From a virus (Duplodnaviria; Heunggongvirae; Uroviricota; Caudoviricetes): DNA of 42,212 nucleotides. Positions within the stretch are counted from its first letter, which is position 1. Every line of letters begins with the position of its first letter. The notes beneath the pieces were generated by a model. That model was given only the letters and a program-made list of their open reading frames with translations. It was not told where the DNA came from and did not search any database. Positions 1-41,204 of this stretch are shown one piece after another. The position numbers and the translations under genes were made by a program. Where the stretch lies: positions 1 through 42,212 of the IMG/VR virus record IMGVR_UViG_2695420595_000014, one strand, 5' to 3'.

Positions 1-1248
1 ATGGCACTGAATATTCCATTCAGAAATGCGTACTATCGTTTTGCATCCAGTTACTCATTTCTCTTTTTTATTTCCTGGTCGCTGTGGTGGTCGTTATACG
101 CTATTTGGCTGAAAGGACATCTAGGGTTGACAGGGACGGAATTAGGTACACTTTATTCGGTCAACCAGTTTACCAGCATTCTATTTATGATGTTCTACGG
201 CATCGTTCAGGATAAACTCGGTCTGAAGAAACCGCTCATCTGGTGTATGAGTTTCATCCTGGTCTTGACCGGACCGTTTATGATTTACGTTTATGAACCG
301 TTACTGCAAAGCAATTTTTCTGTAGGTCTAATTCTGGGGGCGCTATTTTTTGGCTTGGGGTATCTGGCGGGATGCGGTTTGCTTGATAGCTTCACCGAAA
401 AAATGGCGCGAAATTTTCATTTCGAATATGGAACAGCGCGCGCCTGGGGATCTTTTGGCTATGCTATTGGCGCGTTCTTTGCCGGCATATTTTTTAGTAT
501 CAGTCCCCATATCAACTTCTGGTTGGTCTCGCTATTTGGCGCTGTATTTATGATGATCAACATGCGTTTTAAAGATAAGGATCACCAGTGCGTAGCGGCA
601 GATGCGGGAGGGGTAAAAAAAGAGGATTTTATCGCAGTTTTCAAGGATCGAAACTTCTGGGTTTTCGTCATATTTATTGTGGGGACGTGGTCTTTCTATA
701 ACATTTTTGATCAACAACTTTTTCCTGTCTTTTATGCAGGTTTATTCGAATCACACGATGTAGGAACGCGCCTGTATGGTTATCTCAACTCATTCCAGGT
801 GGTACTCGAAGCGCTGTGCATGGCGATTATTCCTTTCTTTGTGAATCGGGTAGGGCCAAAAAATGCATTACTTATCGGAGTTGTGATTATGGCGTTGCGT
901 ATCCTTTCCTGCGCGCTGTTCGTTAACCCCTGGATTATTTCATTAGTGAAGTTGTTACATGCCATTGAGGTTCCACTTTGTGTCATATCCGTCTTCAAAT
1001 ACAGCGTGGCAAACTTTGATAAGCGCCTGTCGTCGACGATCTTTCTGATTGGTTTTCAAATTGCCAGTTCGCTTGGGATTGTGCTGCTTTCAACGCCGAC
1101 TGGGATACTCTTTGACCACGCAGGCTACCAGACAGTTTTCTTCGCAATTTCGGGTATTGTCTGCCTGATGTTGCTATTTGGCATTTTCTTCTTGAGTAAA
1201 AAACGCGAGCAAATAGTTATGGAAACGCCTGTACCTTCAGCAATATAG
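1..1248 (+). CDS. cscB: Sucrose:H+ symporter, LacY-family MFS permease (415 aa)
   Basis: Full-length ORF; 12-TM oligosaccharide:H+ symporter architecture; translation matches CscB as I recall it (MALNIPFRNAYYRF... start). Confidence 0.8.
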   Translation: MALNIPFRNAYYRFASSYSFLFFISWSLWWSLYAIWLKGHLGLTGTELGTLYSVNQFTSILFMMFYGIVQDKLGLKKPLIWCMSFILVLTGPFMIYVYEPLLQSNFSVGLILGALFFGLGYLAGCGLLDSFTEKMARNFHFEYGTARAWGSFGYAIGAFFAGIFFSISPHINFWLVSLFGAVFMMINMRFKDKDHQCVAADAGGVKKEDFIAVFKDRNFWVFVIFIVGTWSFYNIFDQQLFPVFYAGLFESHDVGTRLYGYLNSFQVVLEALCMAIIPFFVNRVGPKNALLIGVVIMALRILSCALFVNPWIISLVKLLHAIEVPLCVISVFKYSVANFDKRLSSTIFLIGFQIASSLGIVLLSTPTGILFDHAGYQTVFFAISGIVCLMLLFGIFFLSKKREQIVMETPVPSAI

Positions 1249-19279: not shown

Positions 19280-19764
19280 GCATAAGAGAACTAAACCTCA
19301 CCAAAGAACAGCACGATTGGCTGAATGGCTGGCTTGAACTGTGGGGCGCATGGGTTTATTCAGGTCGTCTGGAAAAGCGCATGAGCAGCGTAATAGCGAA
19401 GTTCATGGAGAGCGTAGAGCCGGGAAGAGTTATGACAAGGCCAATGTGTAATGATGATGATGGAATGTTGATTTCTCAGGTCGTCGATTCCGTCATGTAC
19501 ATTGACAAGAAAGCCTTTGGAATCCTCCTCAGCTACTACGCTCATGGCTCTTCCAAGCACGCCATTGCATCTTACTATCATCGCGTCGCAAGACCTCGCA
19601 AGATGTTATGCCGTGGCGGCGGGCGCATTCAAAAACCATCGCTCGCAACCTGTCGACGGGAAGTTGACGAAATCCTTAATGCCTCGTTGTTTATGATTTA
19701 CCCGGTTCTGGATAGTGCGTTTAAAAATCGGAAACGTGTAGAGAAAATTAAACATGTAGCATAG
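19276..19764 (+). CDS. Q: Late-gene antiterminator Q (162 aa)
   Basis: Last gene of the nin region before the tRNAs and lysis cassette; Q-family by position and size; sequence identity not confirmed. Confidence 0.55.
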   Translation: MSIRELNLTKEQHDWLNGWLELWGAWVYSGRLEKRMSSVIAKFMESVEPGRVMTRPMCNDDDGMLISQVVDSVMYIDKKAFGILLSYYAHGSSKHAIASYYHRVARPRKMLCRGGGRIQKPSLATCRREVDEILNASLFMIYPVLDSAFKNRKRVEKIKHVA

Positions 19765-19855: not shown

Positions 19856-19930
19856 GGGTCAGTCGTATAAAGGTCATTACGGAAGGCTGTTAACCTTCTT
19901 ATCGTGGTTCGAGTCCACGCTGTCCCGCCA
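19856..19930 (+). tRNA. tRNA-like gene, anticodon GUU (Asn) by manual folding, with acceptor and D-stem mismatches
   Basis: 75 nt ending CCA; T-arm cgtgg-ttcgagt-ccacg; 5-bp anticodon stem with loop CUGUUAA; one T-T mismatch in the acceptor stem and one in the D stem. Confidence 0.5.
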
Positions 19931-19935
19931 AATAT

Positions 19936-20011
19936 GCTGGTTTAGCTCCAATGGTAGAGCAGTCGCCTTGTAAGCGAATGGGTAGCGGTTCAAGTCCGTT
20001 AACCAGCACCA
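19936..20011 (+). tRNA. tRNA, anticodon UGU (Thr) by manual folding
   Basis: 76 nt; perfect 7-bp acceptor stem GCTGGTT/AACCAGC, D-arm GCTC/GAGC, anticodon loop CUUGUAA, T-loop TTCAAGT, 3' CCA. Confidence 0.7.
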
Positions 20012-20253
20012 TAACTGAGCCGTAGCCACTGGCTATCCTGAATTCATCAGTGATAGTTACGCTGCGGCATTCTACGCATGACCTTCGTGAAAGCGGGTGG
20101 CAAGAGGCTGCGCTAACAACCTCCTGCCGTTTTGCCCGTGCATATCGGTCACGAACAAATCTGATTACTAAACACAGTAGCCTGGATTTGTTCTATCAGT
20201 AATCGACCTTATTCCTAATTAAATAGAGCAAATCCCCTTATTGGGGGTAAGAC

Positions 20254-20577
20254 ATGAAGATGCCAGAAAAACATGACCTGTTAGCCGCCATTCTCGCGGC
20301 AAAGGAACAAGGCATCGGGGCAATCCTTGCGTTTGCAATGGCGTACCTTCGCGGCAGATATAATGGCGGTGCGTTTACAAAAACAGTAATCGACGCAACG
20401 ATGTGCGCCATTATCGCCTGGTTCATTCGTGACCTTCTCGACTTCGCCGGACTAAGTAGCAATCTCGCTTATATAACGAGCGTGTTCATCGGCTACATCG
20501 GTACTGACTCGATTGGTTCGCTTATCAAACGCTTCGCTGCTAAAAAAGCCGGAGTAGAAGATGGTGGAAATCAATAA
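20254..20577 (+). CDS. S: Holin S (class I, dual-start, 107 aa)
   Basis: [39 protein letters not shown]... essentially identical to lambda S from memory. Confidence 0.9.
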
Positions 20578-21037
20578 TCAACGTAAGGCGTTCCTCGATA
20601 TGCTGGCGTGGTCAGAGGGAACTGATAATGGACGTCAGAAAACCAGAAATCATGGTTATGACGTCATTGTTGGCGGAGAGCTATTCACTGATTACTCCGA
20701 TCACCCTCGCAAACTTGTCACGCTAAACCCCAAACTCAAATCAACAGCCGCCGGACGCTACCAGCTTCTTTCCCGTTGGTGGGATGCCTATCGTAAGCAG
20801 CTTGGCCTGAAAGACTTCTCTCCGAAAAGCCAGGACGCTGTGGCACTGCAACAGATTAAAGAGCGTGGCGCTTTACCGATGATTGATCGCGGTGATATCC
20901 GTCAGGCAATCGACCGTTGCAGCAATATCTGGGCTTCACTGCCGGGGGCTGGTTATGGTCAGTTCGAGCATAAGGCTGACAGCCTGATTGCAAAATTCAA
21001 AGAGGCTGGCGGAGCGGTCAGAGAGATTGAGGTATGA
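20561..21037 (+). CDS. R: Endolysin R (lytic transglycosylase, 158 aa)
   Basis: [39 protein letters not shown]... near-identical to lambda R. Confidence 0.9.
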
Positions 21038-21501
21038 GCAGAGTAACCGCGATTATCTCCGCTCTGGTTATCTGCATCATCGTCTGTCTGTCATGGGCTG
21101 TTAATCATTACCGTGATAATGCCATCGCCTACAAAGAGCAGCGAGATAAAAAAGTCAGTGAGCTGAAGCAGGCGACCGCCACCATTACTGACATGCAGCA
21201 ACGCCAGCGTGCTGCTGATGTACTCGATGCTAAATACACGAAGGAGTTAGCTGATGCGAAAGCTGAAAATGATGCTCTTCGTCGCAAGCTTGATAATGGT
21301 GGCAGGGTGCTCGTCAAAGGAAAATGCCCTGTGCCATCCTCAGCCGAAACCTCCGGCGCCTCCGGCATGGGCAATGATGCCACCGTCGAACTCTCTCCAG
21401 TTGCTGGACGAAACGTTCTCGGTATCCGGGACGGAATCATCAGCGACCAAACAGCACTGAGAACGCTTCAGGAATACATCAGGACGCAATGCCTTCGATG
21501 A
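21034..21501 (+). CDS. Rz: Spanin inner-membrane subunit Rz (155 aa)
   Basis: N-terminal TM, coiled coil; lambda Rz-like; follows R with ATGA overlap. Confidence 0.85.
21254..21460 (+). CDS. Rz1: Spanin outer-membrane lipoprotein Rz1, embedded in Rz in the +1 frame
   Basis: [19 protein letters not shown] lipobox, proline-rich mature region; AAGGAG SD. Confidence 0.7.
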
Positions 21502-21641
21502 TAGCGATAATTTTACTCATCATCCTTCACATCTGGCTCTGTAGACAGGGTGGTGAACACTTCTGGATTGAATCCAGATTAAACATCTCATTGCTGATGC
21601 TTGAAGTTGAGCATCTGGCGCGCGGTAAGGGGCTGCGTTGA
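21498..21641 (+). CDS. 47-aa hydrophobic peptide, translationally coupled to Rz (speculative)
   Basis: ATG overlaps the Rz stop (ATGA); [15 protein letters not shown]...; not in the ORF track. Confidence 0.25.
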
Positions 21642-21882
21642 GATAAGAGCCAGTTCATTACAAAGCCTATCTACGGGTGGGCTTGATAATGAAACCGGAA
21701 TTTATTCTGGGCAACCAGTTACGGCAGTACAGCGAAACAACCCAAGCCAGTAAGTGGGGAAATAACACTGGCAGCCACTGAAAGATGAACCCCCTGCCTT
21801 ATGGCAAAAAAGATTCTTTGTGGTGGCGGACTGATGGAAAGACATCCGCTGAATCGATGATAAACAAGTGGAAGAGGTTGCG

Positions 21883-22053
21883 ATGGTTTCCGTGAACAAA
21901 GATCCGAAGGAAGGCGTTGAATACATCACTGGTGCTGATGGTGTGAAAAGACCAATGGCTTATTACAAAGCGGCTGAAGAGAGGGCAAGAATAGAAAATC
22001 CCCCTAAATGCGGATCATTTTTCGACATGCTGGACCTTCAATGGAAGTTGTGA
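21883..22053 (+). CDS. Small hypothetical protein (56 aa)
   Basis: ATG with GAAGAGG SD inside ORF 21868..22053. Confidence 0.35.
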   Translation: MVSVNKDPKEGVEYITGADGVKRPMAYYKAAEERARIENPPKCGSFFDMLDLQWKL

Positions 22054-22192
22054 ACAACTAACAGGTCGCTCAGGCGGCCTTTTTTATTGCCATCACAAAA
22101 GCCATTCCCTACAGAGTGGCTTTGGTAATGGCTTATACCCTACACGGGATAACTTAACTGATATCCCTTTTAACGGATAAACGGAGCCAACA

Positions 22193-22435
22193 ATGGCAGA
22201 GATTATTCCCATGACTGAAGAACAGAAATTCCAGTTAGAGATTTACAAACTGGTCATGAACCAGAACACAGCCGCAGAAGAAGCATTTCAGTTCATTGGC
22301 ACTGACGAGTTGAAGCTTGAGCTATTCAAAATTCACTTCCAGTCAGGCGGCGCTAATTCAGATATCACGACCCGCACTATCGAAGCGGTGCGTAAATCGA
22401 AGGAAGCGTTAGACCTGTTCACTACCGGAGCATAA
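22193..22435 (+). CDS. Hypothetical protein (80 aa) upstream of the small terminase
   Basis: ORF with GGAG SD. Confidence 0.5.
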   Translation: MAEIIPMTEEQKFQLEIYKLVMNQNTAAEEAFQFIGTDELKLELFKIHFQSGGANSDITTRTIEAVRKSKEALDLFTTGA

Positions 22436-34332: not shown

Positions 34333-36170
34333 TGAAAGTAACTGCAAACGGTAAGACATTTACCTTTCCTGATGGTACGAGCACCGAAGATATTGGCATC
34401 GCCATTGATGAGTATTTTGCTGGTCAGGATGTTCAGCAACAAACAGTTAATCAGGCCAATAATGCACCAACACGGGAAGAACCATCATTGATGCAACAAG
34501 CTGGCGATTGGCTCACTGGTGGTCAAAGTGCAGGGCAAATTGCAGAACAGGCTGGTCGTGGTCTGGTAAACATACCATTTGACGTATTGCAGGGTGGCGC
34601 AAGTCTGATTAATGCAATCAGTCAGGGGATTGGTGGGCCAAAAGTTTTGGATGATGTTTATCGTCCAGTAGACAAACCGACAGACCCATACGCACAAGCC
34701 GGTGAAACAATTGGTGGGTATTTAGTTCCAGGAGTTGGAACGGCAGGAAGCATGGCTATTGGATCGCTGGCAGAGGCCGCAAATCAGAAAGGCGATTTCG
34801 CACAAAATGCAGCTAAAAATGCCGGAGTTAACCTTGCCGCTCAGGGTGTTCTTTCCGCAGCAGCAAAGGGAATAGGGCGTGGAATAACGGCTATAAAAGG
34901 TGATATTGCGCCAGAAGTGGCGAAGAAAATTGCCACATCAGAATCGATGGGCGTGACACCAATGACATCTGATGTTATCCCGCCGAAAAATGCTTTCACT
35001 CGCGGCCTTACTCAGGATGCCGAGGGGGCTTTGCTCGGGACGGGCTCAAAGCGAGCAGAGCAATATGCAACGCGGAGTAAGCTGGTAAGCAATTATTTTG
35101 ACCGTTTTGGTGAGTACAACCCTGATGATGTGGTGAAATCTCTGACCACCACGTTAAGGGGGCGGAAGGATGCCGCTGGCGCTGTTATCAATGACGTCAC
35201 CAATAAAATGGGTAATGCCGCAGTTGATACCACAAATACCATGAATGCTCTGAATACAGCGATCGCAAGACAGGAACGGCTTGGGACGTCTGCCAATCAA
35301 AGCCTGCTTACATCCTTGCGTAACCTACGTGAAGAATTAGCAAACCCTGCAACTGATTTGGATGTTACGTTTGATCTCTTGCGTCAGCACAGAACAGCAT
35401 TTAGATCTAATGTTCAGGGAGATGCTATGGTCTTCCCCAACCAGGCAAAAGCAGCTACCAATATGGTAGAGAATGCAATGTCAAAAGACCTTCGTAACGC
35501 AGTTGCTAAAAACCTCGGTGCATCAGACGCAGCAAAATACCTTAAAGCAAATTCCGATTATGCAAACGTTTATAATAAGGTGCTTAATAAAAACATTGCC
35601 AACAAGCTCAACAAGGCAAGCAGTGAAGCCAGTCCTGAACTTATAAATACCGTTGTATTAAGCAGAAAACCATCTGACGTGAAACGAATCTGGAGCGCAC
35701 TGGATGATAAGGGGAAAGATGCTATGCGTGCAGCTTACGTCAGCAAAATAGCGGAAAAGGCCGGGGACTCTCCAGCCAAGTTCATCACTGAAGTTAATAA
35801 GCTGAAATCTCAGTCAGGCGGTGAAATTTACAACACTATTTTTTCTGGAAAGCACATGAAAGAGCTTGATGCTCTTCATGAAGTTCTACAGCAAACAGCA
35901 AGGTCAGACACCGCAAATGTAGTAACTCAGACGGGGCAATCGCAAGCCAACAGGATAAGGACGATTGGCGCAACTGCGACCCTTGGCGTATCAATGGGGC
36001 TTGAGGCTGGTTTTGGTGCAATGATGCGCTTGTATGAGTCCAAAGCAGCAAGGAATATGCTTCTTCGTTTGGCAAACACCAAAGCAGGAACACCAGCCTA
36101 TGAAAGAGCGATAAATAACGCTGCGAATGCCATCAGACCGCTGTTTGCTACTGAGGCAACACAGCAGTAA
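34329..36170 (+). CDS. Ejection protein (P22 gp16-like, 613 aa)
   Basis: Size and position; ATGA overlap with the previous gene. Confidence 0.65.
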
Positions 36171-36194: not shown

Positions 36195-36584
36195 CTAACA
36201 TTTTCTTTTTACTTTTCCAACAAAAGCTTTGGTTGAATCCATATTTCCATAACCGGAAATGGTTTTTGACATTAAAACTGTTCCAGTAGGATGTATTACC
36301 CATGAGTCGATAACGCGTTGAGTTTCGCCATTCGCGCCGATTCCTATGATGGAGTTTTTAGACAATGCTTTGTAAGCCATGCCGCCCGCATCTGTCCCAG
36401 AATATGTGATGCTGGCATCTTCACCGTTTGTCTTAATGATGAATGTTCCACTAAAACCATCTTCTTCCGGATGGAAATTATTTCGTTCTGAATAGCTTAT
36501 TCCGCGCATATCTCCAACGACCCAGCACTCTGCTGTAGCCCCAAAAGATATGAATAAGAACATAGCAGTAAGAAATTGCTTCAC
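36195..36584 (-). CDS. Secreted protein with cleavable signal peptide (129 aa), cargo between gp16 and tailspike
   Basis: MKQFLTAMFLFISFGATA-E signal peptide; opposite strand to the surrounding late operon. Confidence 0.55.
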   Translation of the reverse strand: MKQFLTAMFLFISFGATAECWVVGDMRGISYSERNNFHPEEDGFSGTFIIKTNGEDASITYSGTDAGGMAYKALSKNSIIGIGANGETQRVIDSWVIHPTGTVLMSKTISGYGNMDSTKAFVGKVKRKC

Positions 36585-36702
36585 GCCAACCTCCTTAGTT
36601 TTGAGCAGGATACCATGAAAAAAGTAAACATCTTTTGCCTACTTCACATTTGAATGGTTTGTCATTAGGATGTTTCCGGTTTTTTCAAATATGGAAATTG
36701 AT

Positions 36703-37122
36703 ATGAAGAGGATTATCGGCGTTGTTGCTGGCGCTATATTGTTATCTGGGTGCGCAACTATTGTTGGTGACGAAACACAGCTCGTGCAAGTGAACAGCAA
36801 TCCTTCCGGTGCGAGCTTTAAAGTAAAAGACGAATCAGGCGTGATTGTTGCGCAAGGCAAGACCCCGCAAGGAGTAACTCTTGCCAAGTCAGATGGTAGT
36901 TATTTTGGCAAAAAGAGCTACCAGATCACTATGGAAAAGGATGGGTACGAACCAGTTACCCTGCCAATCAAAGCCAATGCTAATGGTTGGTATATTGGTG
37001 GAAACCTTGTGTTTGGTGGGTTAATTGGTTGGCTTGCTGTAGATCCTTTTAATGGTGGGATGTATACCTTGAAGCCAAAAGAGGCAAACGCATCTCTTAT
37101 ACCATCAACAAAGCAAGACTAA
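36703..37122 (+). CDS. Lipoprotein (about 139 aa)
   Basis: MKRIIGVVAGAILLSGC lipobox within ORF 36670..37122; Gly-rich C-terminal region GWYIGGNLVFGGLIGWLAVDPFNGG. Confidence 0.6.
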   Translation: MKRIIGVVAGAILLSGCATIVGDETQLVQVNSNPSGASFKVKDESGVIVAQGKTPQGVTLAKSDGSYFGKKSYQITMEKDGYEPVTLPIKANANGWYIGGNLVFGGLIGWLAVDPFNGGMYTLKPKEANASLIPSTKQD

Positions 37123-37202: not shown

Positions 37203-37229
37203 CGACCCAGCTTCGGCTGGGTTTTTTTA
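37203..37229 (+). terminator. Rho-independent terminator
   Basis: gacccagc-ttcg-gctgggt hairpin followed by T7. Confidence 0.8.
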
Positions 37230-37364: not shown

Positions 37365-39602
37365 ATGACAGACATTACAGCCAATGTGATCGTATCGATG
37401 CCTTCGCAACTCTTCACTATGGCTCGTTCTTTTAAAGCCGTAGCCAATGGCAAAATTTATATCGGTAAAATTGACACTGACCCGGTAAATACTGAAAACC
37501 AGATTCAGGTTTATGTAGAGAACGAAGATGGTTCTCACGTTCCTGTTTCGCAACCAATCATCATTAACGCTGCTGGATATCCGGTATATAACGGACAGAT
37601 TGCCAAATTCGTAACCGTGCAAGGCCATTCTATGGCTGTTTATGATGCGTATGGTGCGCAGCAGTTCTATTTTTCGAATGTGCTGAAGTATGACCCTGAC
37701 CAACTCAGGCAAGATCTTGCATCTCAAGGAGGTGTTAATCTGGTAAACGGAGCTATCTCACAGGAAGATCTTGTTTTGCAGTCGATCACAAAAATTCCAA
37801 GTTATGATAATTCTAACGTAGTCCAGGCGTGGCGCGATAGTGTTGCGACCTACGGGTATGTTTACTTCTCTAATCATTCAAAAAATCAGATGGTGTACAC
37901 CGTACCGTCTACAGCTGCTAACGCTTCTTTCCTTGCGAACAGTAAAGTAATCATTGATAAAAATGTCACCCTGAGATTCGACAGTGATCTGTACTCACTG
38001 TTTAAATCGTTGCAGTACGAGGGGGAGGGTACGTTTGAATTTACGCACCTGAACTTTAAAGCAACCGGTGGAGAAGTGGATTATCTGGCTAAGCAGGCCA
38101 TCCTCAACCGAAACCCTATTCGCATGAAGCGAGTGGAATGGTCAGATTGTAAAGTTTATTCCATAAATGGTGACACGTTCTTCTATGAAGGTGAAGTCAC
38201 CATATCCTCAGATAGCGCAGCTATCTTCCCCTTAACTACTGACCGTACAACAGGCCTGTTCGCACCAATAGATATTGGAGAGCATATTTCTGCACATATT
38301 CGTATGGAATCTCAGGCCGCCTCAGAAGTTGGGATTGTTCTGCGATGCTCTGGTGGTTGGATGATGTTCTATGGGGCACCAGGTGCTACACAGTGGTCTT
38401 ATAGACAGAAACCAATTGGTGGTCCAGTAGCAGAAGGAACTCCATTCCCGCTGCCAGGAGGTTTACTGTCGTACGCCCCGGGCAAAGCAACCGTTGGCGT
38501 ATCACTGCAAGGTAAAAACTGGGCGCAGATAACGATGAATGGCGTTGGGATACGTTTGCCCTTTGATACTGCTGATGTAGGGGATGTATACGAAGTTGGG
38601 TTTGTTGCACTGACCACGGCATCTGGAGGTTCTGCGCGTGTAACTGGATTATGCAGCTACACCTCTGATAATGGCGTGCACGGTAAGCCTCCACTTAATA
38701 TCCTTATCCACGGTGATAGTACAGCTGAGGATTTCATTTCCGCGTTCAGCTCGTACATTCCGCAATTAATGGATGGAGCGAACGGCCACCGTTCACATAG
38801 CATTGTAAACAAGGCAGTTGCCGGACAGACAATGAGGCAACAGTTAGATCTCCTGAAGGCTCAGGGGCCGGGTGATGCTTACATCGTTATTATGGTTGCC
38901 GGAACTAACGAAGGGCAGGCAAACCAAAACGGCGATTATATGGCGTCATTGATAGATGAGTTTGTCTTATATTGCAATGGCCTTGGTCGTATCCCTGTTT
39001 GGGTTGAGCCGTGGATGTGGTATAGCCAGTCATTTATTGGAGGGGCTGGCCAGCCATCTTCTAACTACGACGGTGTCGCAGAGTTGCGAGAAGCTGGTAA
39101 ACGCCAGATGATGAAATATGGCAATAACGTCATTTGTGTAACAACAACTCACCAGCTCCCGGCCCCATATCCAGAGTATTTCAACACGCAATACGACCCA
39201 CTTCTGCGTGATGACATTCACCAAAGCCAGTTAGGGTATCGTCTGTATGCGGAAATTATCTGCTCTGCCATTATCGACTGGTGGTCGCGTGTTGATTACA
39301 CGCCAAGAGCAGCTGTTCAATGGTGGGCTGGAACAAACGTAACAGTACAGGCACCGTCAAGTTTAACTGCCAATTCAATTAATATTGAACTGGCAGCCAC
39401 TTCATTTGCGAATGGCAATACTGTTCTAACGCTTCCGAGGTGGTGCAGACCAAAAGTAACCAAAAATGTCCCTGTACCGTTCACTGCTGATGGCGTTTCA
39501 TTTGGCATGGCAATGGCCACCATTAATGCTTCAACAGGACAAATATCGATTGAAGGGTCCACCACTACATCTCCAACGTTCTACATAGATGCGACATGGT
39601 AG
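37365..39602 (+). CDS. Tailspike: P22-type head-binding N-domain plus receptor-binding part with SGNH-hydrolase (esterase) motifs (745 aa)
   Basis: First ~110 aa match the P22 tailspike head-binding domain; C-terminal region carries GDS(T) (nt 38712..38720), a later Gly block, GTNE and DDIH blocks in SGNH order. Confidence 0.8.
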
Positions 39603-39608
39603 TAAAAA

Positions 39609-39631
39609 CATGGAGGCAATACGCCTCCATG
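39609..39631. terminator. Hairpin between convergent tailspike and integrase genes (probable bidirectional terminator)
   Basis: catggaggc-aatac-gcctccatg; T run on the minus-strand side. Confidence 0.5.
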
Positions 39632-39810
39632 CTAATAACTCAAATGCTCTTAAAATACTCTTAAGGAGATGATCAGCGCTTTTATTAACATCAACCATCT
39701 ATGTGCGTTATAGGTTAATTATCTCCATGTGATGGCAGACAAAACTGAGACACACAAAGCTTTGCACTGGATTGCAAGGCTTTGTGCTCTTAGATAGTAG
39801 TTAAGGTGGA

Positions 39811-40968
39811 TCACTCCACCTTCCCATCAAGCCATTCCGCCCACCACTGCATCATTTCTCTGCGCTTATCTAGATACTGAGCATGGTTGTAAATCCCGCG
39901 CACAGATCCGCCGTTGGCATGTGCAAGTTGCACTTCAATAGCGTCAGCAGGCCATTCGTGCTCGTTCATAATCGTGCTGAATTCATGCCTGAATCCGTGA
40001 CCGCTTTCCAGACCCTCATAGCCGATTTGTTTAATCACAAGTAGCACCGCGTTCTCGCAGATTGGCTTCTTCTTATCGTTGCGTCCGGCAAAAACAAACT
40101 CTGATACTGGTTTGGTGATTGAGCTTAGCGTAGTGAGAAGTTCAACCACCTGGTCTGACATAGGAACCACATGAATTTTGCGTCCCTTCATCACACTGGC
40201 GTCGATAGTGATAATCCTGTTTTCAAAATCGACGTTCTTCCATTGCATGGAACGAAGCTCTTTCGTTCTTAGGGCTGTGTAGCGTAAAACTTTGGTCGCA
40301 ATGAGCGATACGATGCTTCCTGAAAATGTTGCCAGTGCTTTGTTGAATGCCGGGATCTGGTCTGCAGGAAGAAACGGGAAGTTCTTCTTGCGGTATCCTT
40401 TCATGGCGTCTGCAAGGTCAGGTGCCGGGTTATATTTAGCCCTACCAGTGACAATAGCGTAACGGAAAACCTCGCCGCATCTTCTGCGTGCTTTGTTGGC
40501 TCGCTCCATTGCGCCGCGATCTTCAAATCTGCGGATTACTTCCAGCAGTTGCATCGGCTCAATATCCTGAATTTCAAGGCCGCCGATGATAGGTAAAATG
40601 TCGTCATCAAACATTTTTGCAAGTTCAGTTGCATAGCCTACTGACCAGACTTGCTTCTTGTGCTCGTACCATTCCTTGTAAATCGCACTAAAGGAATTGT
40701 TGTTAGACGAAGCCTTTTTCGCTTTTACCGGATCGATGCCAACCGAGATGTCTTTCCTCGCAGTCCATGCTTTATCCCTTGCCTCCTGCAAAGTCATTAG
40801 CGGATATTTTCCTACGGTCAGGATTTTCTCCTTACCGTCAATCTTGTAGCGAAGCTGCCATACCTTTTTCCCTGACACAGGGACATAAAGGTACAGGCCA
40901 TTACCATCGAGTAGGCGGTATGGTTTTTCTTTCGGCTTTGCTGCTTCAATCTGCTTAACGGTGAGCAT
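39811..40968 (-). CDS. intS: Tyrosine integrase, P4-type (about 385 aa)
   Basis: Essentially matches IntS of CPS-53/KplE1 from memory; catalytic-domain R...HxxR...Y; adjacent to argW; start chosen at MLTVKQIEAAKPK. Confidence 0.9.
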   Translation of the reverse strand: MLTVKQIEAAKPKEKPYRLLDGNGLYLYVPVSGKKVWQLRYKIDGKEKILTVGKYPLMTLQEARDKAWTARKDISVGIDPVKAKKASSNNNSFSAIYKEWYEHKKQVWSVGYATELAKMFDDDILPIIGGLEIQDIEPMQLLEVIRRFEDRGAMERANKARRRCGEVFRYAIVTGRAKYNPAPDLADAMKGYRKKNFPFLPADQIPAFNKALATFSGSIVSLIATKVLRYTALRTKELRSMQWKNVDFENRIITIDASVMKGRKIHVVPMSDQVVELLTTLSSITKPVSEFVFAGRNDKKKPICENAVLLVIKQIGYEGLESGHGFRHEFSTIMNEHEWPADAIEVQLAHANGGSVRGIYNHAQYLDKRREMMQWWAEWLDGKVE

Positions 40969-41129
40969 GGGTAAAAATCCGGTGGGTAAAATTATTTTAT
41001 CCACTTTTTACCCGTCATGGAGTGCGGCTGTCAACGATCTGACGCGAACCATTACGAACTGTGAATCTACGGAAGGCTTGATATTCAGGGGATTTTGCGG
41101 ACTGGTACGGATGGGAGCGAACTGATAAA

Positions 41130-41204
41130 TGGTGTCCCCTGCAGGAATCGAACCTGCAATTAGCCCTTAGGAGGGGCTCGTTATATCCATTTAACTAAGA
41201 GGAC
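41130..41204 (-). tRNA. argW: tRNA-Arg (anticodon CCU)
   Basis: Reverse complement reads GTCCTCTTAGTTAAATGGATATAACGAGCCCCTCCTAAGGGCTAATTGCAGGTTCGATTCCTGCAGGGGACACCA; cloverleaf folds with anticodon CCU. Confidence 0.95.

Follow-up and report, generated by a model that had tools for sequence, protein, structure and literature searches.

A P22-type tailspike with a predicted SGNH esterase body and its association with Escherichia coli serogroup O88

The P22-type virion is the textbook example of a particle that cleaves the O-antigen with a beta-helix tailspike. In the virus record IMGVR_UViG_2695420595_000014 (Caudoviricetes), all 42,212 nucleotides (nt) of which were analyzed and are called the window here, a head-binding domain of this type is joined to a receptor-binding protein that is predicted to be an esterase only. 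We wanted to know what such a protein does to its receptor. The gene in question, the tailspike gene, occupies positions 37365 to 39602 on the plus strand and encodes 745 amino acids (aa) followed by a stop codon, according to the list of open reading frames. The frame is intact, with an ATG start, a TAG stop and a GGAG Shine-Dalgarno sequence 9 nt upstream of the ATG. Our analysis suggests that the product is likely a trimeric, virion-borne de-O-acetylase of the Escherichia coli O88 O-antigen, by analogy with gp63.1 of phage G7C or gp55 of phage PP99.

We assigned residues 1-113 (37365..37703, plus strand) to a head-binding (virion adaptor) domain on the basis of Pfam and PDB sequence matches. 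The PF09008 (Head_binding) profile was matched over its whole length by aa 1-113 (E=6.2e-66, score 220.2 bits, gathering cut-off 24, all 113 profile positions covered). In the PDB, the N-terminus matched Sf6 gp14 (7sg7, E=4e-65) and the P22 tailspike (8tvr and 2vky, E=1e-49). A first-pass annotation had likened the N-terminal ~110 aa to the P22 tailspike head-binding domain, and the full-profile match bears this out. It had also described the receptor-binding part as unrelated to the P22 endorhamnosidase; this agrees with the search of the PDB with the whole protein, in which there were zero sequence matches past aa ~121.

The full-length protein matched phrog_17606, a PHROGs family of unknown function, and the gene was 98.5% identical at the nucleotide level to E. 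coli genes labelled 'phage tailspike protein'. The NCBIfam search assigned no family. A full-length relative was absent from the phage GenBank collection, where distant C-terminal matches to Aeromonas phage phiA047 (29%) and Enterobacter phages SABI and SonariX (23%) were the only ones obtained. We dropped 'colanic acid degradation', the label of phrog_8280, since that match covers just aa 1-232 (adaptor and neck) and is uninformative on the catalytic part. The gene is placed as in a P22-like virion module, with the ejection-protein genes upstream and int/att nearby: a DNA-transfer protein gene (phrog_770) ends at 36170, and the integrase gene and a tRNA-Arg gene follow the tailspike gene. Syntenic prophages with annotation encode P22 coat, portal, gp4 and gp10 genes. 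The best explanation is that a temperate P22-like phage (Lederbergvirus-type), integrated at argW, has this gene product as its only tailspike.

Past the adaptor, we located the SGNH-hydrolase (esterase) domain at aa ~441-645 (38685..39299, plus strand, as are the motifs and domains that follow). Block I, G450-D451-S452-T453 (38712..38723), contains the predicted nucleophile Ser452. Block II, AVAG487QT (38814..38831), and block III, G513-T514-N515-E516 (38901..38912), contribute the oxyanion-hole residues Gly487 and Asn515, and block V, D616-D617-I618-H619 (39210..39221), holds the catalytic Asp616 and His619. The canonical order of the motifs had been proposed from the letters of this stretch, and it was confirmed by the conservation of the blocks across homologs and by their one-to-one alignment with TesA. 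GDST stands at aa 450-453 as claimed, the 'later conserved Gly' is G487, and GTNE, expected at about aa 515, was located at aa 513-516. The numbering of DDIH, however, was off by 9 residues, as it had been put at about aa 625, and His628 was not the catalytic residue: position 628 is occupied by an invariant Tyr, and the catalytic role falls to His619.

To define conservation, we searched for homologs with aa 116-745, which returned 85 proteins, while an exhaustive representative search gave 248 clusters at E<=1e-3. In a 41-sequence alignment that reaches down to 25% identity, G450-D451-S452, G487, G513-T514-N515, D616 and H619 were all invariant (Ser452 in 41/41). We further aligned the domain profile to all 224 fetched proteins, including 137 distant representatives. 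Ser452, Asn515, Asp616 and His619 were present in 100% of the column-covering sequences among 221 homologs, with identity down to ~23%. Blocks III and V are separated by a family-specific insertion (39006..39104) with the conserved motifs EPWMWY (aa 548-553) and ELREAGKR (aa 573-580). Within it P549, M551, W552, Y553 and R575 were invariant in the 41-sequence alignment, and Arg575 was kept in 134/135 distant representatives. The insertion is mostly without a counterpart in TesA, and the two motifs are candidate substrate-binding elements.

E. coli TesA is the archetypal SGNH hydrolase, in which these roles belong to Ser10, Gly44, Asn73, Asp154 and His157. The family profile detected TesA (hmmsearch E=1.3e-5; hhalign probability 92.9%, E=3.7e-7) and paired S452, G487, N515, D616 and H619 with those residues in that order. 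Residues 3-105 of the TesA sequence used agree with 1jrl/1ivn in the HMMER output. When the tailspike alone was compared with the Pfam SGNH profile PF13472, the score was 19.6 bits (E=0.0014, gathering cut-off 32.9, profile span 3-178 of 178), and 23 of the 41 aligned relatives matched the same profile at E<=1e-3 (best E=1e-13). Several relatives are already named 'SGNH/GDSL hydrolase family protein' by the NCBI pipeline.

The AlphaFold2 model, built from the 41-sequence alignment, had a predicted local distance difference test score (pLDDT) of 81.4 and a predicted template modelling score of 0.74, with aa 140-745 mostly above a pLDDT of 85. Structure prediction and comparison with SGNH esterases had been suggested as a check, and the model confidently places an SGNH-hydrolase fold in the C-terminal part, with the three-layer alpha/beta/alpha flavodoxin-like arrangement of the superfamily. 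Since family conservation, profile alignment and predicted structure agree independently, the SGNH assignment of the C-terminal part is near certain.

What had been described as one domain is, in the model, a four-part cassette of alpha/beta, beta-sandwich, SGNH and C-terminal beta-sandwich domains. From model secondary structure and pLDDT, neck helices (aa ~111-136) and the small alpha/beta domain (aa ~140-250) span 37704..38114. They are followed by an all-beta sandwich (jelly roll) at aa ~251-440 (38115..38684), modelled at pLDDT above 90. An eight-stranded C-terminal beta-sandwich at aa ~646-745 (39300..39599, pLDDT about 96) varies among relatives. We propose the first sandwich as a glycan-binding and specificity module, and the second may possibly stabilise a trimer or bind glycan. 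The best Foldseek matches of the C-terminal half were two-domain esterases with a beta-sandwich and an SGNH domain (CE2 enzymes 2waa/2wab, PbeAcXE 7toh, YxiM 2o14), and aa ~251-440 also matched galectin/GH16-type jelly rolls. Structural matches in BFVD included numerous phage tail proteins that carry an SGNH esterase annotation, the PP99 tail spike among them.

There was no right-handed beta-helix anywhere in the tailspike model or its structural matches, and no glycosidase signature among its Pfam, PHROG or NCBIfam matches. For this reason the best reading of the model is that the tailspike would de-esterify the glycan rather than cleave its backbone, as the first-pass annotation had predicted. 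The alpha/beta or beta-sandwich domains could still harbour another active site that depolymerises the glycan and makes deacetylation accessory. The beta-sandwich does match GH16 jelly-roll glycosidases (1mac, 4atf), acidic residues are conserved (D198, D270, E306, E410), and a preprint on epsilon15 reports tailspikes with a depolymerising body and an esterase domain. Besides the missing beta-helix and glycosidase match, it speaks against such a site that the best two-domain matches, sandwich plus SGNH, are CE2-type esterases and that in G7C the esterase alone suffices (PMC10743462). We give a second depolymerising site only a small chance, slightly below that of an inactive SGNH domain, which is weighed further on. 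A GH16-like site in the beta-sandwich was dropped as a candidate, as there is no conserved ExDxxE and the Asp of 'PIDIGE' is not conserved. It is very improbable that the SGNH domain is an O-acyltransferase, as in OatA, PatB and OafA, and not a hydrolase: the tailspike is an extracellular virion protein without an acetyl donor or AT3 partner, its top structural matches are esterases, and so are the functionally characterised phage counterparts.

The esterase reading concerns a unit that moves between phages. Relatives 80-99% identical over the cassette (aa ~115-745) carry unrelated N-termini, and similarity to relatives with foreign adaptors starts at query aa 105-118 in most. The adaptors joined to it are PF09008 (P22), PF18668 (TSP1/gp66), PF03906 (T7 fibre), PF12571 (tail collar) and PF03160 (Calx-beta); judged from these fusions, the cassette is mobile, on at least five adaptor types. 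The SGNH block is its best-conserved portion, and the beta-sandwich and C-terminal domain are mosaic and more variable; the sandwich at aa ~251-440 is among the two most variable blocks (63-98% identity between close relatives). This distribution is consistent with binding surfaces that vary around a conserved catalytic core.

In complete E. coli genomes the cassette was carried by P22-like, guaA-type (holin/GH19-flanked) and tape-measure/TipJ-type prophages. P22-like cassette prophages adjoin ybhB/bioA in A30 and GPEC1240. In the 'guaAphage' of NADC1036, and in 602687 and HN257, holins and a GH19 endolysin come after an 800-aa fusion, and the XJ55 prophage that bears the cassette also encodes a tape measure and a tail protein of the TipJ type. 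Cassettes 89-91% identical stand behind other adaptors in Enterobacter (E. asburiae and a multispecies entry; P0014, P0017). In both A30 and GPEC1240, the sequence that follows the tailspike gene is of the window type and borders on ybhB/bioA. A30 (locus L004) also has a truncated tailspike fragment at 19400-19594, by an IS66 element and ~400 bp upstream of the full-length gene (20001-22238). In GPEC1240 (locus L003, 7447-7530) the window-type sequence runs into the 3' end of int, which is annotated as an N-terminally truncated fragment. From these remnants, a tailspike replacement or a prophage rearrangement seems to have taken place.

The distribution of the cassette among genomes points to a likely receptor. 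We identified carriers by sensitive blastn with the 3' 1.6 kb of the tailspike gene, which detected alleles of 84% and 71% identity as well, and O88 genomes by megablast of the wzy-glycosyltransferase-wzx segment. Among 5426 complete E. coli genomes there were 13 carriers, and all 13 were among the 30 genomes with O88 wzy/wzx (hypergeometric p=2e-31; 7e-27 when the clonal SRY trio is counted once). The genomes are not fully independent, which makes p an upper bound on significance. Published serotypes of three independent carriers are O88:H31 for SRY149, SRY157 and SRY206 (PMC12955429), O88:H8 for GPEC1240 (PMC13248626) and O88:K+:H16 for NADC1036 (PMC3252337). Five further genomes have an O88-like wzy/wzx variant (~94.6% identity), and the cassette was found in 0/5 of them.

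The O88 carriers were isolated between 1963 and 2021 and differ in phage architecture (three kinds) and integration context (at least three), with alleles of 71-99% nt identity. Since H types, hosts, countries, dates, backbones and integration sites are diverse, simple vertical inheritance is argued against, and clonal inheritance as the sole cause of the O88 link was dropped. Tailspikes of Lederbergvirus and Uetakevirus prophages have been reported to follow the host O serogroup (PMC10408124). From the genome comparison, the likely substrate narrows to the E. coli O88 O-antigen.

We located the O-antigen cluster of SRY149 by synteny; its wzy and wzx are annotated 'O88 family' by NCBI. The cluster contains manB, manC, rfbB, rfbA, rfbC and an extra NAD-dependent epimerase/reductase-family gene, three glycosyltransferase genes and two genes for hexapeptide-repeat O-acetyltransferases, one WbbJ-like (E=5e-30) and one CatB/Vat-like (E=1e-27). 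Because the cluster holds two O-acetyltransferase genes, we predict that the O88 O-antigen is O-acetylated. The O88 antigen is described as branched. In SRY149 (locus L006, 20628-21764) an ISAs1-like ISEc1 transposase gene separates galF from the first O-acetyltransferase gene in the cluster.

Several observations weigh against an O88 de-O-acetylase. The single-sequence Pfam SGNH score falls under the gathering threshold, and the model has a pLDDT below 50 in the block V loop (aa 616-618). Both would suit an SGNH domain that is catalytically dead or just carbohydrate-binding, with the tailspike an O88 adhesin without chemistry. However, 100% conservation of Ser452, Asn515, Asp616 and His619 is the pattern of an active site and not of a degenerate binding domain, and all assayed phage SGNH receptor-binding proteins that we found in the literature are active esterases; we consider a dead domain quite unlikely. 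The O88 link is a genomic co-occurrence in lysogens, its carriers are phylogenetically not fully independent, and O88 O-acetylation is read from a gene cluster and not from a chemical structure. The 89-91% identical Enterobacter cassettes need an O88-like antigen in that genus or another shared receptor.

The receptor might thus be another O-acetylated glycan, such as a capsule (K antigen), colanic acid or the enterobacterial common antigen, with the O88 link indirect. A glycan common to both genera would fit the Enterobacter cassettes, NADC1036 is typed K+, and colanic acid clusters also encode the acetyltransferases WcaB and WcaF. Conserved 'key polysaccharides' have been proposed as podovirus receptors in the review by Letarov (PMC10743462). 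A conserved receptor predicts broad hosts, yet the cassette occurs in those 13 of 5426 genomes only, all of them O88. The carriers span H types, hosts, decades, backbones and integration sites and include alleles only 71-84% identical, and the serogroup dependence of related prophage tailspikes mentioned above also favours the O-antigen. We therefore regard another glycan as unlikely, though a little less so than a dead domain.

If the tailspike is an O88 O-antigen de-O-acetylase, infection might proceed as follows. As in P22 and Sf6, the N-terminal 113 residues would dock the presumably trimeric tailspike onto the tail hub; the P22 tailspike is a trimer present in six copies on the tail, and we infer the same for the window tailspike. 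The cassette would recognise the O88 O-antigen, probably via its variable beta-sandwich domains, which would present the polysaccharide to the SGNH site. There, Ser452 as the nucleophile, Gly487 and Asn515 as the oxyanion hole and Asp616-His619 as the charge relay would hydrolyse the O-acetyl esters of the repeat unit and leave the glycan backbone unbroken. By analogy with G7C gp63.1 and PP99 gp55, repeated cycles of binding, deacetylation and release would carry the virion down the O-antigen layer, and DNA ejection would be triggered at the outer membrane.

The region downstream of the tailspike gene bears on what the lysogen does with the same antigen. The gap between the tailspike and integrase genes measures 208 bp (39603-39810) and is gene-free, and the statement that no gtr-type genes lie between the two is correct for the window. 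On comparison of the junction with related loci by blastn, homology of the window to occupied relatives ends at 39608, 6 nt past the stop codon, and returns at 39729. Between these points lies an empty 'conversion slot' with a filler of ~120 bp (39609..39728, no strand assigned), which opens with the hairpin CATGGAGGC-AATAC-GCCTCCATG. In most relatives the slot is filled by a 2.3-2.7-kb AT3/SGNH acyltransferase module, not by gtr genes. In SRY149 it contains a gene for a 595-aa fusion of AT3 (PF01757) and SGNH (PF13472) domains, at 1518875-1520662 of NZ_CP173249.1, and a HumD-like gene; LR-06 has the AT3-SGNH gene in a split form. XJ55 has an AT3-SGNH/HumD-like pair, with an IS5 element between the two, downstream of the tail gene that bears the cassette. 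The ~120-bp filler is common to PEC301 and the window, and the acyltransferase-free slot is specific to these two.

Proteins of the AT3 and AT3-SGNH types (Oac, OafA, OafB) serve converting phages and Salmonella as O-antigen O-acetyltransferases. Because such proteins acetylate O-antigens in converting phages, the AT3/SGNH module is a candidate acetyl 'writer' beside an esterase tailspike, and the window prophage a candidate writer-less variant. A more speculative extension, which we put forward tentatively and consider somewhat improbable, is an eraser/writer pair. The virion esterase would strip acetyl groups and the downstream AT3/SGNH protein would re-acetylate, or differently acetylate, the O-antigen of the lysogen and so control superinfection, with the window as a natural writer-less variant. 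In Sf6, Oac blocks the phage's own tailspike (PMC9558356).

The remaining features of the window belong to the prophage and its insertion site. An IntS-type tyrosine integrase gene (39811..41004, minus strand) is convergent with the tailspike gene; it was identified by PF00589, PF22022 and PF13356 and is called intS in relatives. The integration site is tRNA-Arg(CCT), argW (41130..41204, minus strand, ARAGORN). The 3' 30 nt of argW (41130-41159) recur at the left prophage end in two parts, at 1690-1704 (15 nt) and 1998-2013 (16 nt), ~293 bp apart. This split repeat suggests either two successive integrations or that part of a different argW element has remained between the two parts. Positions 1-1248 (plus strand) hold a LacY-family sugar symporter gene (PF01306, E=1e-193), which may presumably be the sucrose permease gene cscB of the csc locus near argW.

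The stretch that separates the last ejection-protein gene from the tailspike gene, where P22 has its immI region, contains two small genes, at 36195-36584 (minus strand) and 36670-37122 (plus strand). The product of the first is 129 aa long and has a signal-peptide-like N-terminus (phrog_2651). That of the second is 150 aa long, has a lipobox (LSGC) and weakly matches a PEGA domain (phrog_6823). Both are candidate morons or exclusion factors. Past them, at 37204-37223, is a strong terminator-like hairpin. Elsewhere inside the prophage, tRNA-Asn(GTT) (19856-19930) and tRNA-Thr(TGT) (19936-20011) are situated just upstream of the open reading frames at 20254-21501, which by position look like lysis genes.

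In summary, this prophage would offer a genetically tractable temperate system in which to ask if a podovirus can cross the O-antigen layer by deacetylation alone. If the eraser/writer reading is true, P22-type virions would infect without glycan cleavage, which bears on the podovirus 'cut or pull' question. The neighbouring AT3/SGNH slot suggests acetylation-based superinfection exclusion paired with a deacetylating tailspike. The predicted O88 specificity is concrete and testable. O88 is reported in disease isolates from poultry, pigs and calves, and the assignment could serve typing reagents and phage or enzyme tools.

The tailspike can be compared with several known systems. P22 gp9, Sf6 gp14 and the HK620 tailspike occupy the same genomic position, after the ejection-protein genes and next to int/att, and have the same role of a single O-antigen-specific receptor-binding protein. 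The head-binding domain is 87-89% identical to that of Sf6 and 68-72% to that of P22. The bodies of the three, however, are right-handed beta-helix endoglycosidases, in place of which the window tailspike has a predicted esterase. The CE2 esterases (2waa, 2wab) and PbeAcXE (7toh) show a beta-sandwich followed by an SGNH domain, as in the C-terminal half of the tailspike, and differ from it as soluble bacterial plant-polysaccharide esterases that are 9-15% identical. CE2 enzymes are described as Ser-His dyad enzymes, whereas the tailspike family keeps the block V Asp.

Among phage proteins, G7C gp63.1 deacetylates the O-antigen and leaves the backbone intact; its activity is essential for infection and apparently processive, and acetylation-deficient hosts are resistant (PMC10743462). 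The catalytic part of gp63.1 (4QNL, from an N4-like podovirus) has no detectable sequence similarity to the tailspike and is related at the fold level only. The 4qnl match obtained with a hidden Markov model is limited to PF18668-type adaptor columns contributed by tailspike relatives. G7C is a virulent phage with a gp66/TSP1-type adaptor, another domain order and accessory domains, and its target is the E. coli 4s O-antigen; the window phage is temperate, with P22-type head binding and O88 as the predicted target.

PP99 gp55, from a Pectobacterium podovirus, is an O-polysaccharide deacetylase by experiment, and its structural match to the tailspike is distant (Foldseek E=2.9e-7). It deacetylates an acetylated 6-deoxy-talose (6dTal) side chain on a mannose-containing O-unit (PMC6989608). 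The O88 cluster, for its part, contains manB/C, the rfbBAC set with an extra reductase-like gene, and two acetyltransferase genes. PP99 is a lytic phage with a T7-like adaptor, unlike the window prophage. SGNH receptor-binding proteins of Klebsiella prophages have no beta-helix and follow the polysaccharide type, and two of them are esterases on p-nitrophenyl acetate (PMC13123978). They target capsules (K loci) and have gp11/gp12-type adaptors. The tailspikes of Moo19 and B2 also hydrolyse p-nitrophenyl acetate. In the literature that we searched, no P22-type head-binding adaptor with an esterase-only body, no O88 assignment and no pairing with an AT3 module were described. Esterase tailspikes are already established, and the window tailspike is a known enzyme type on a new carrier.

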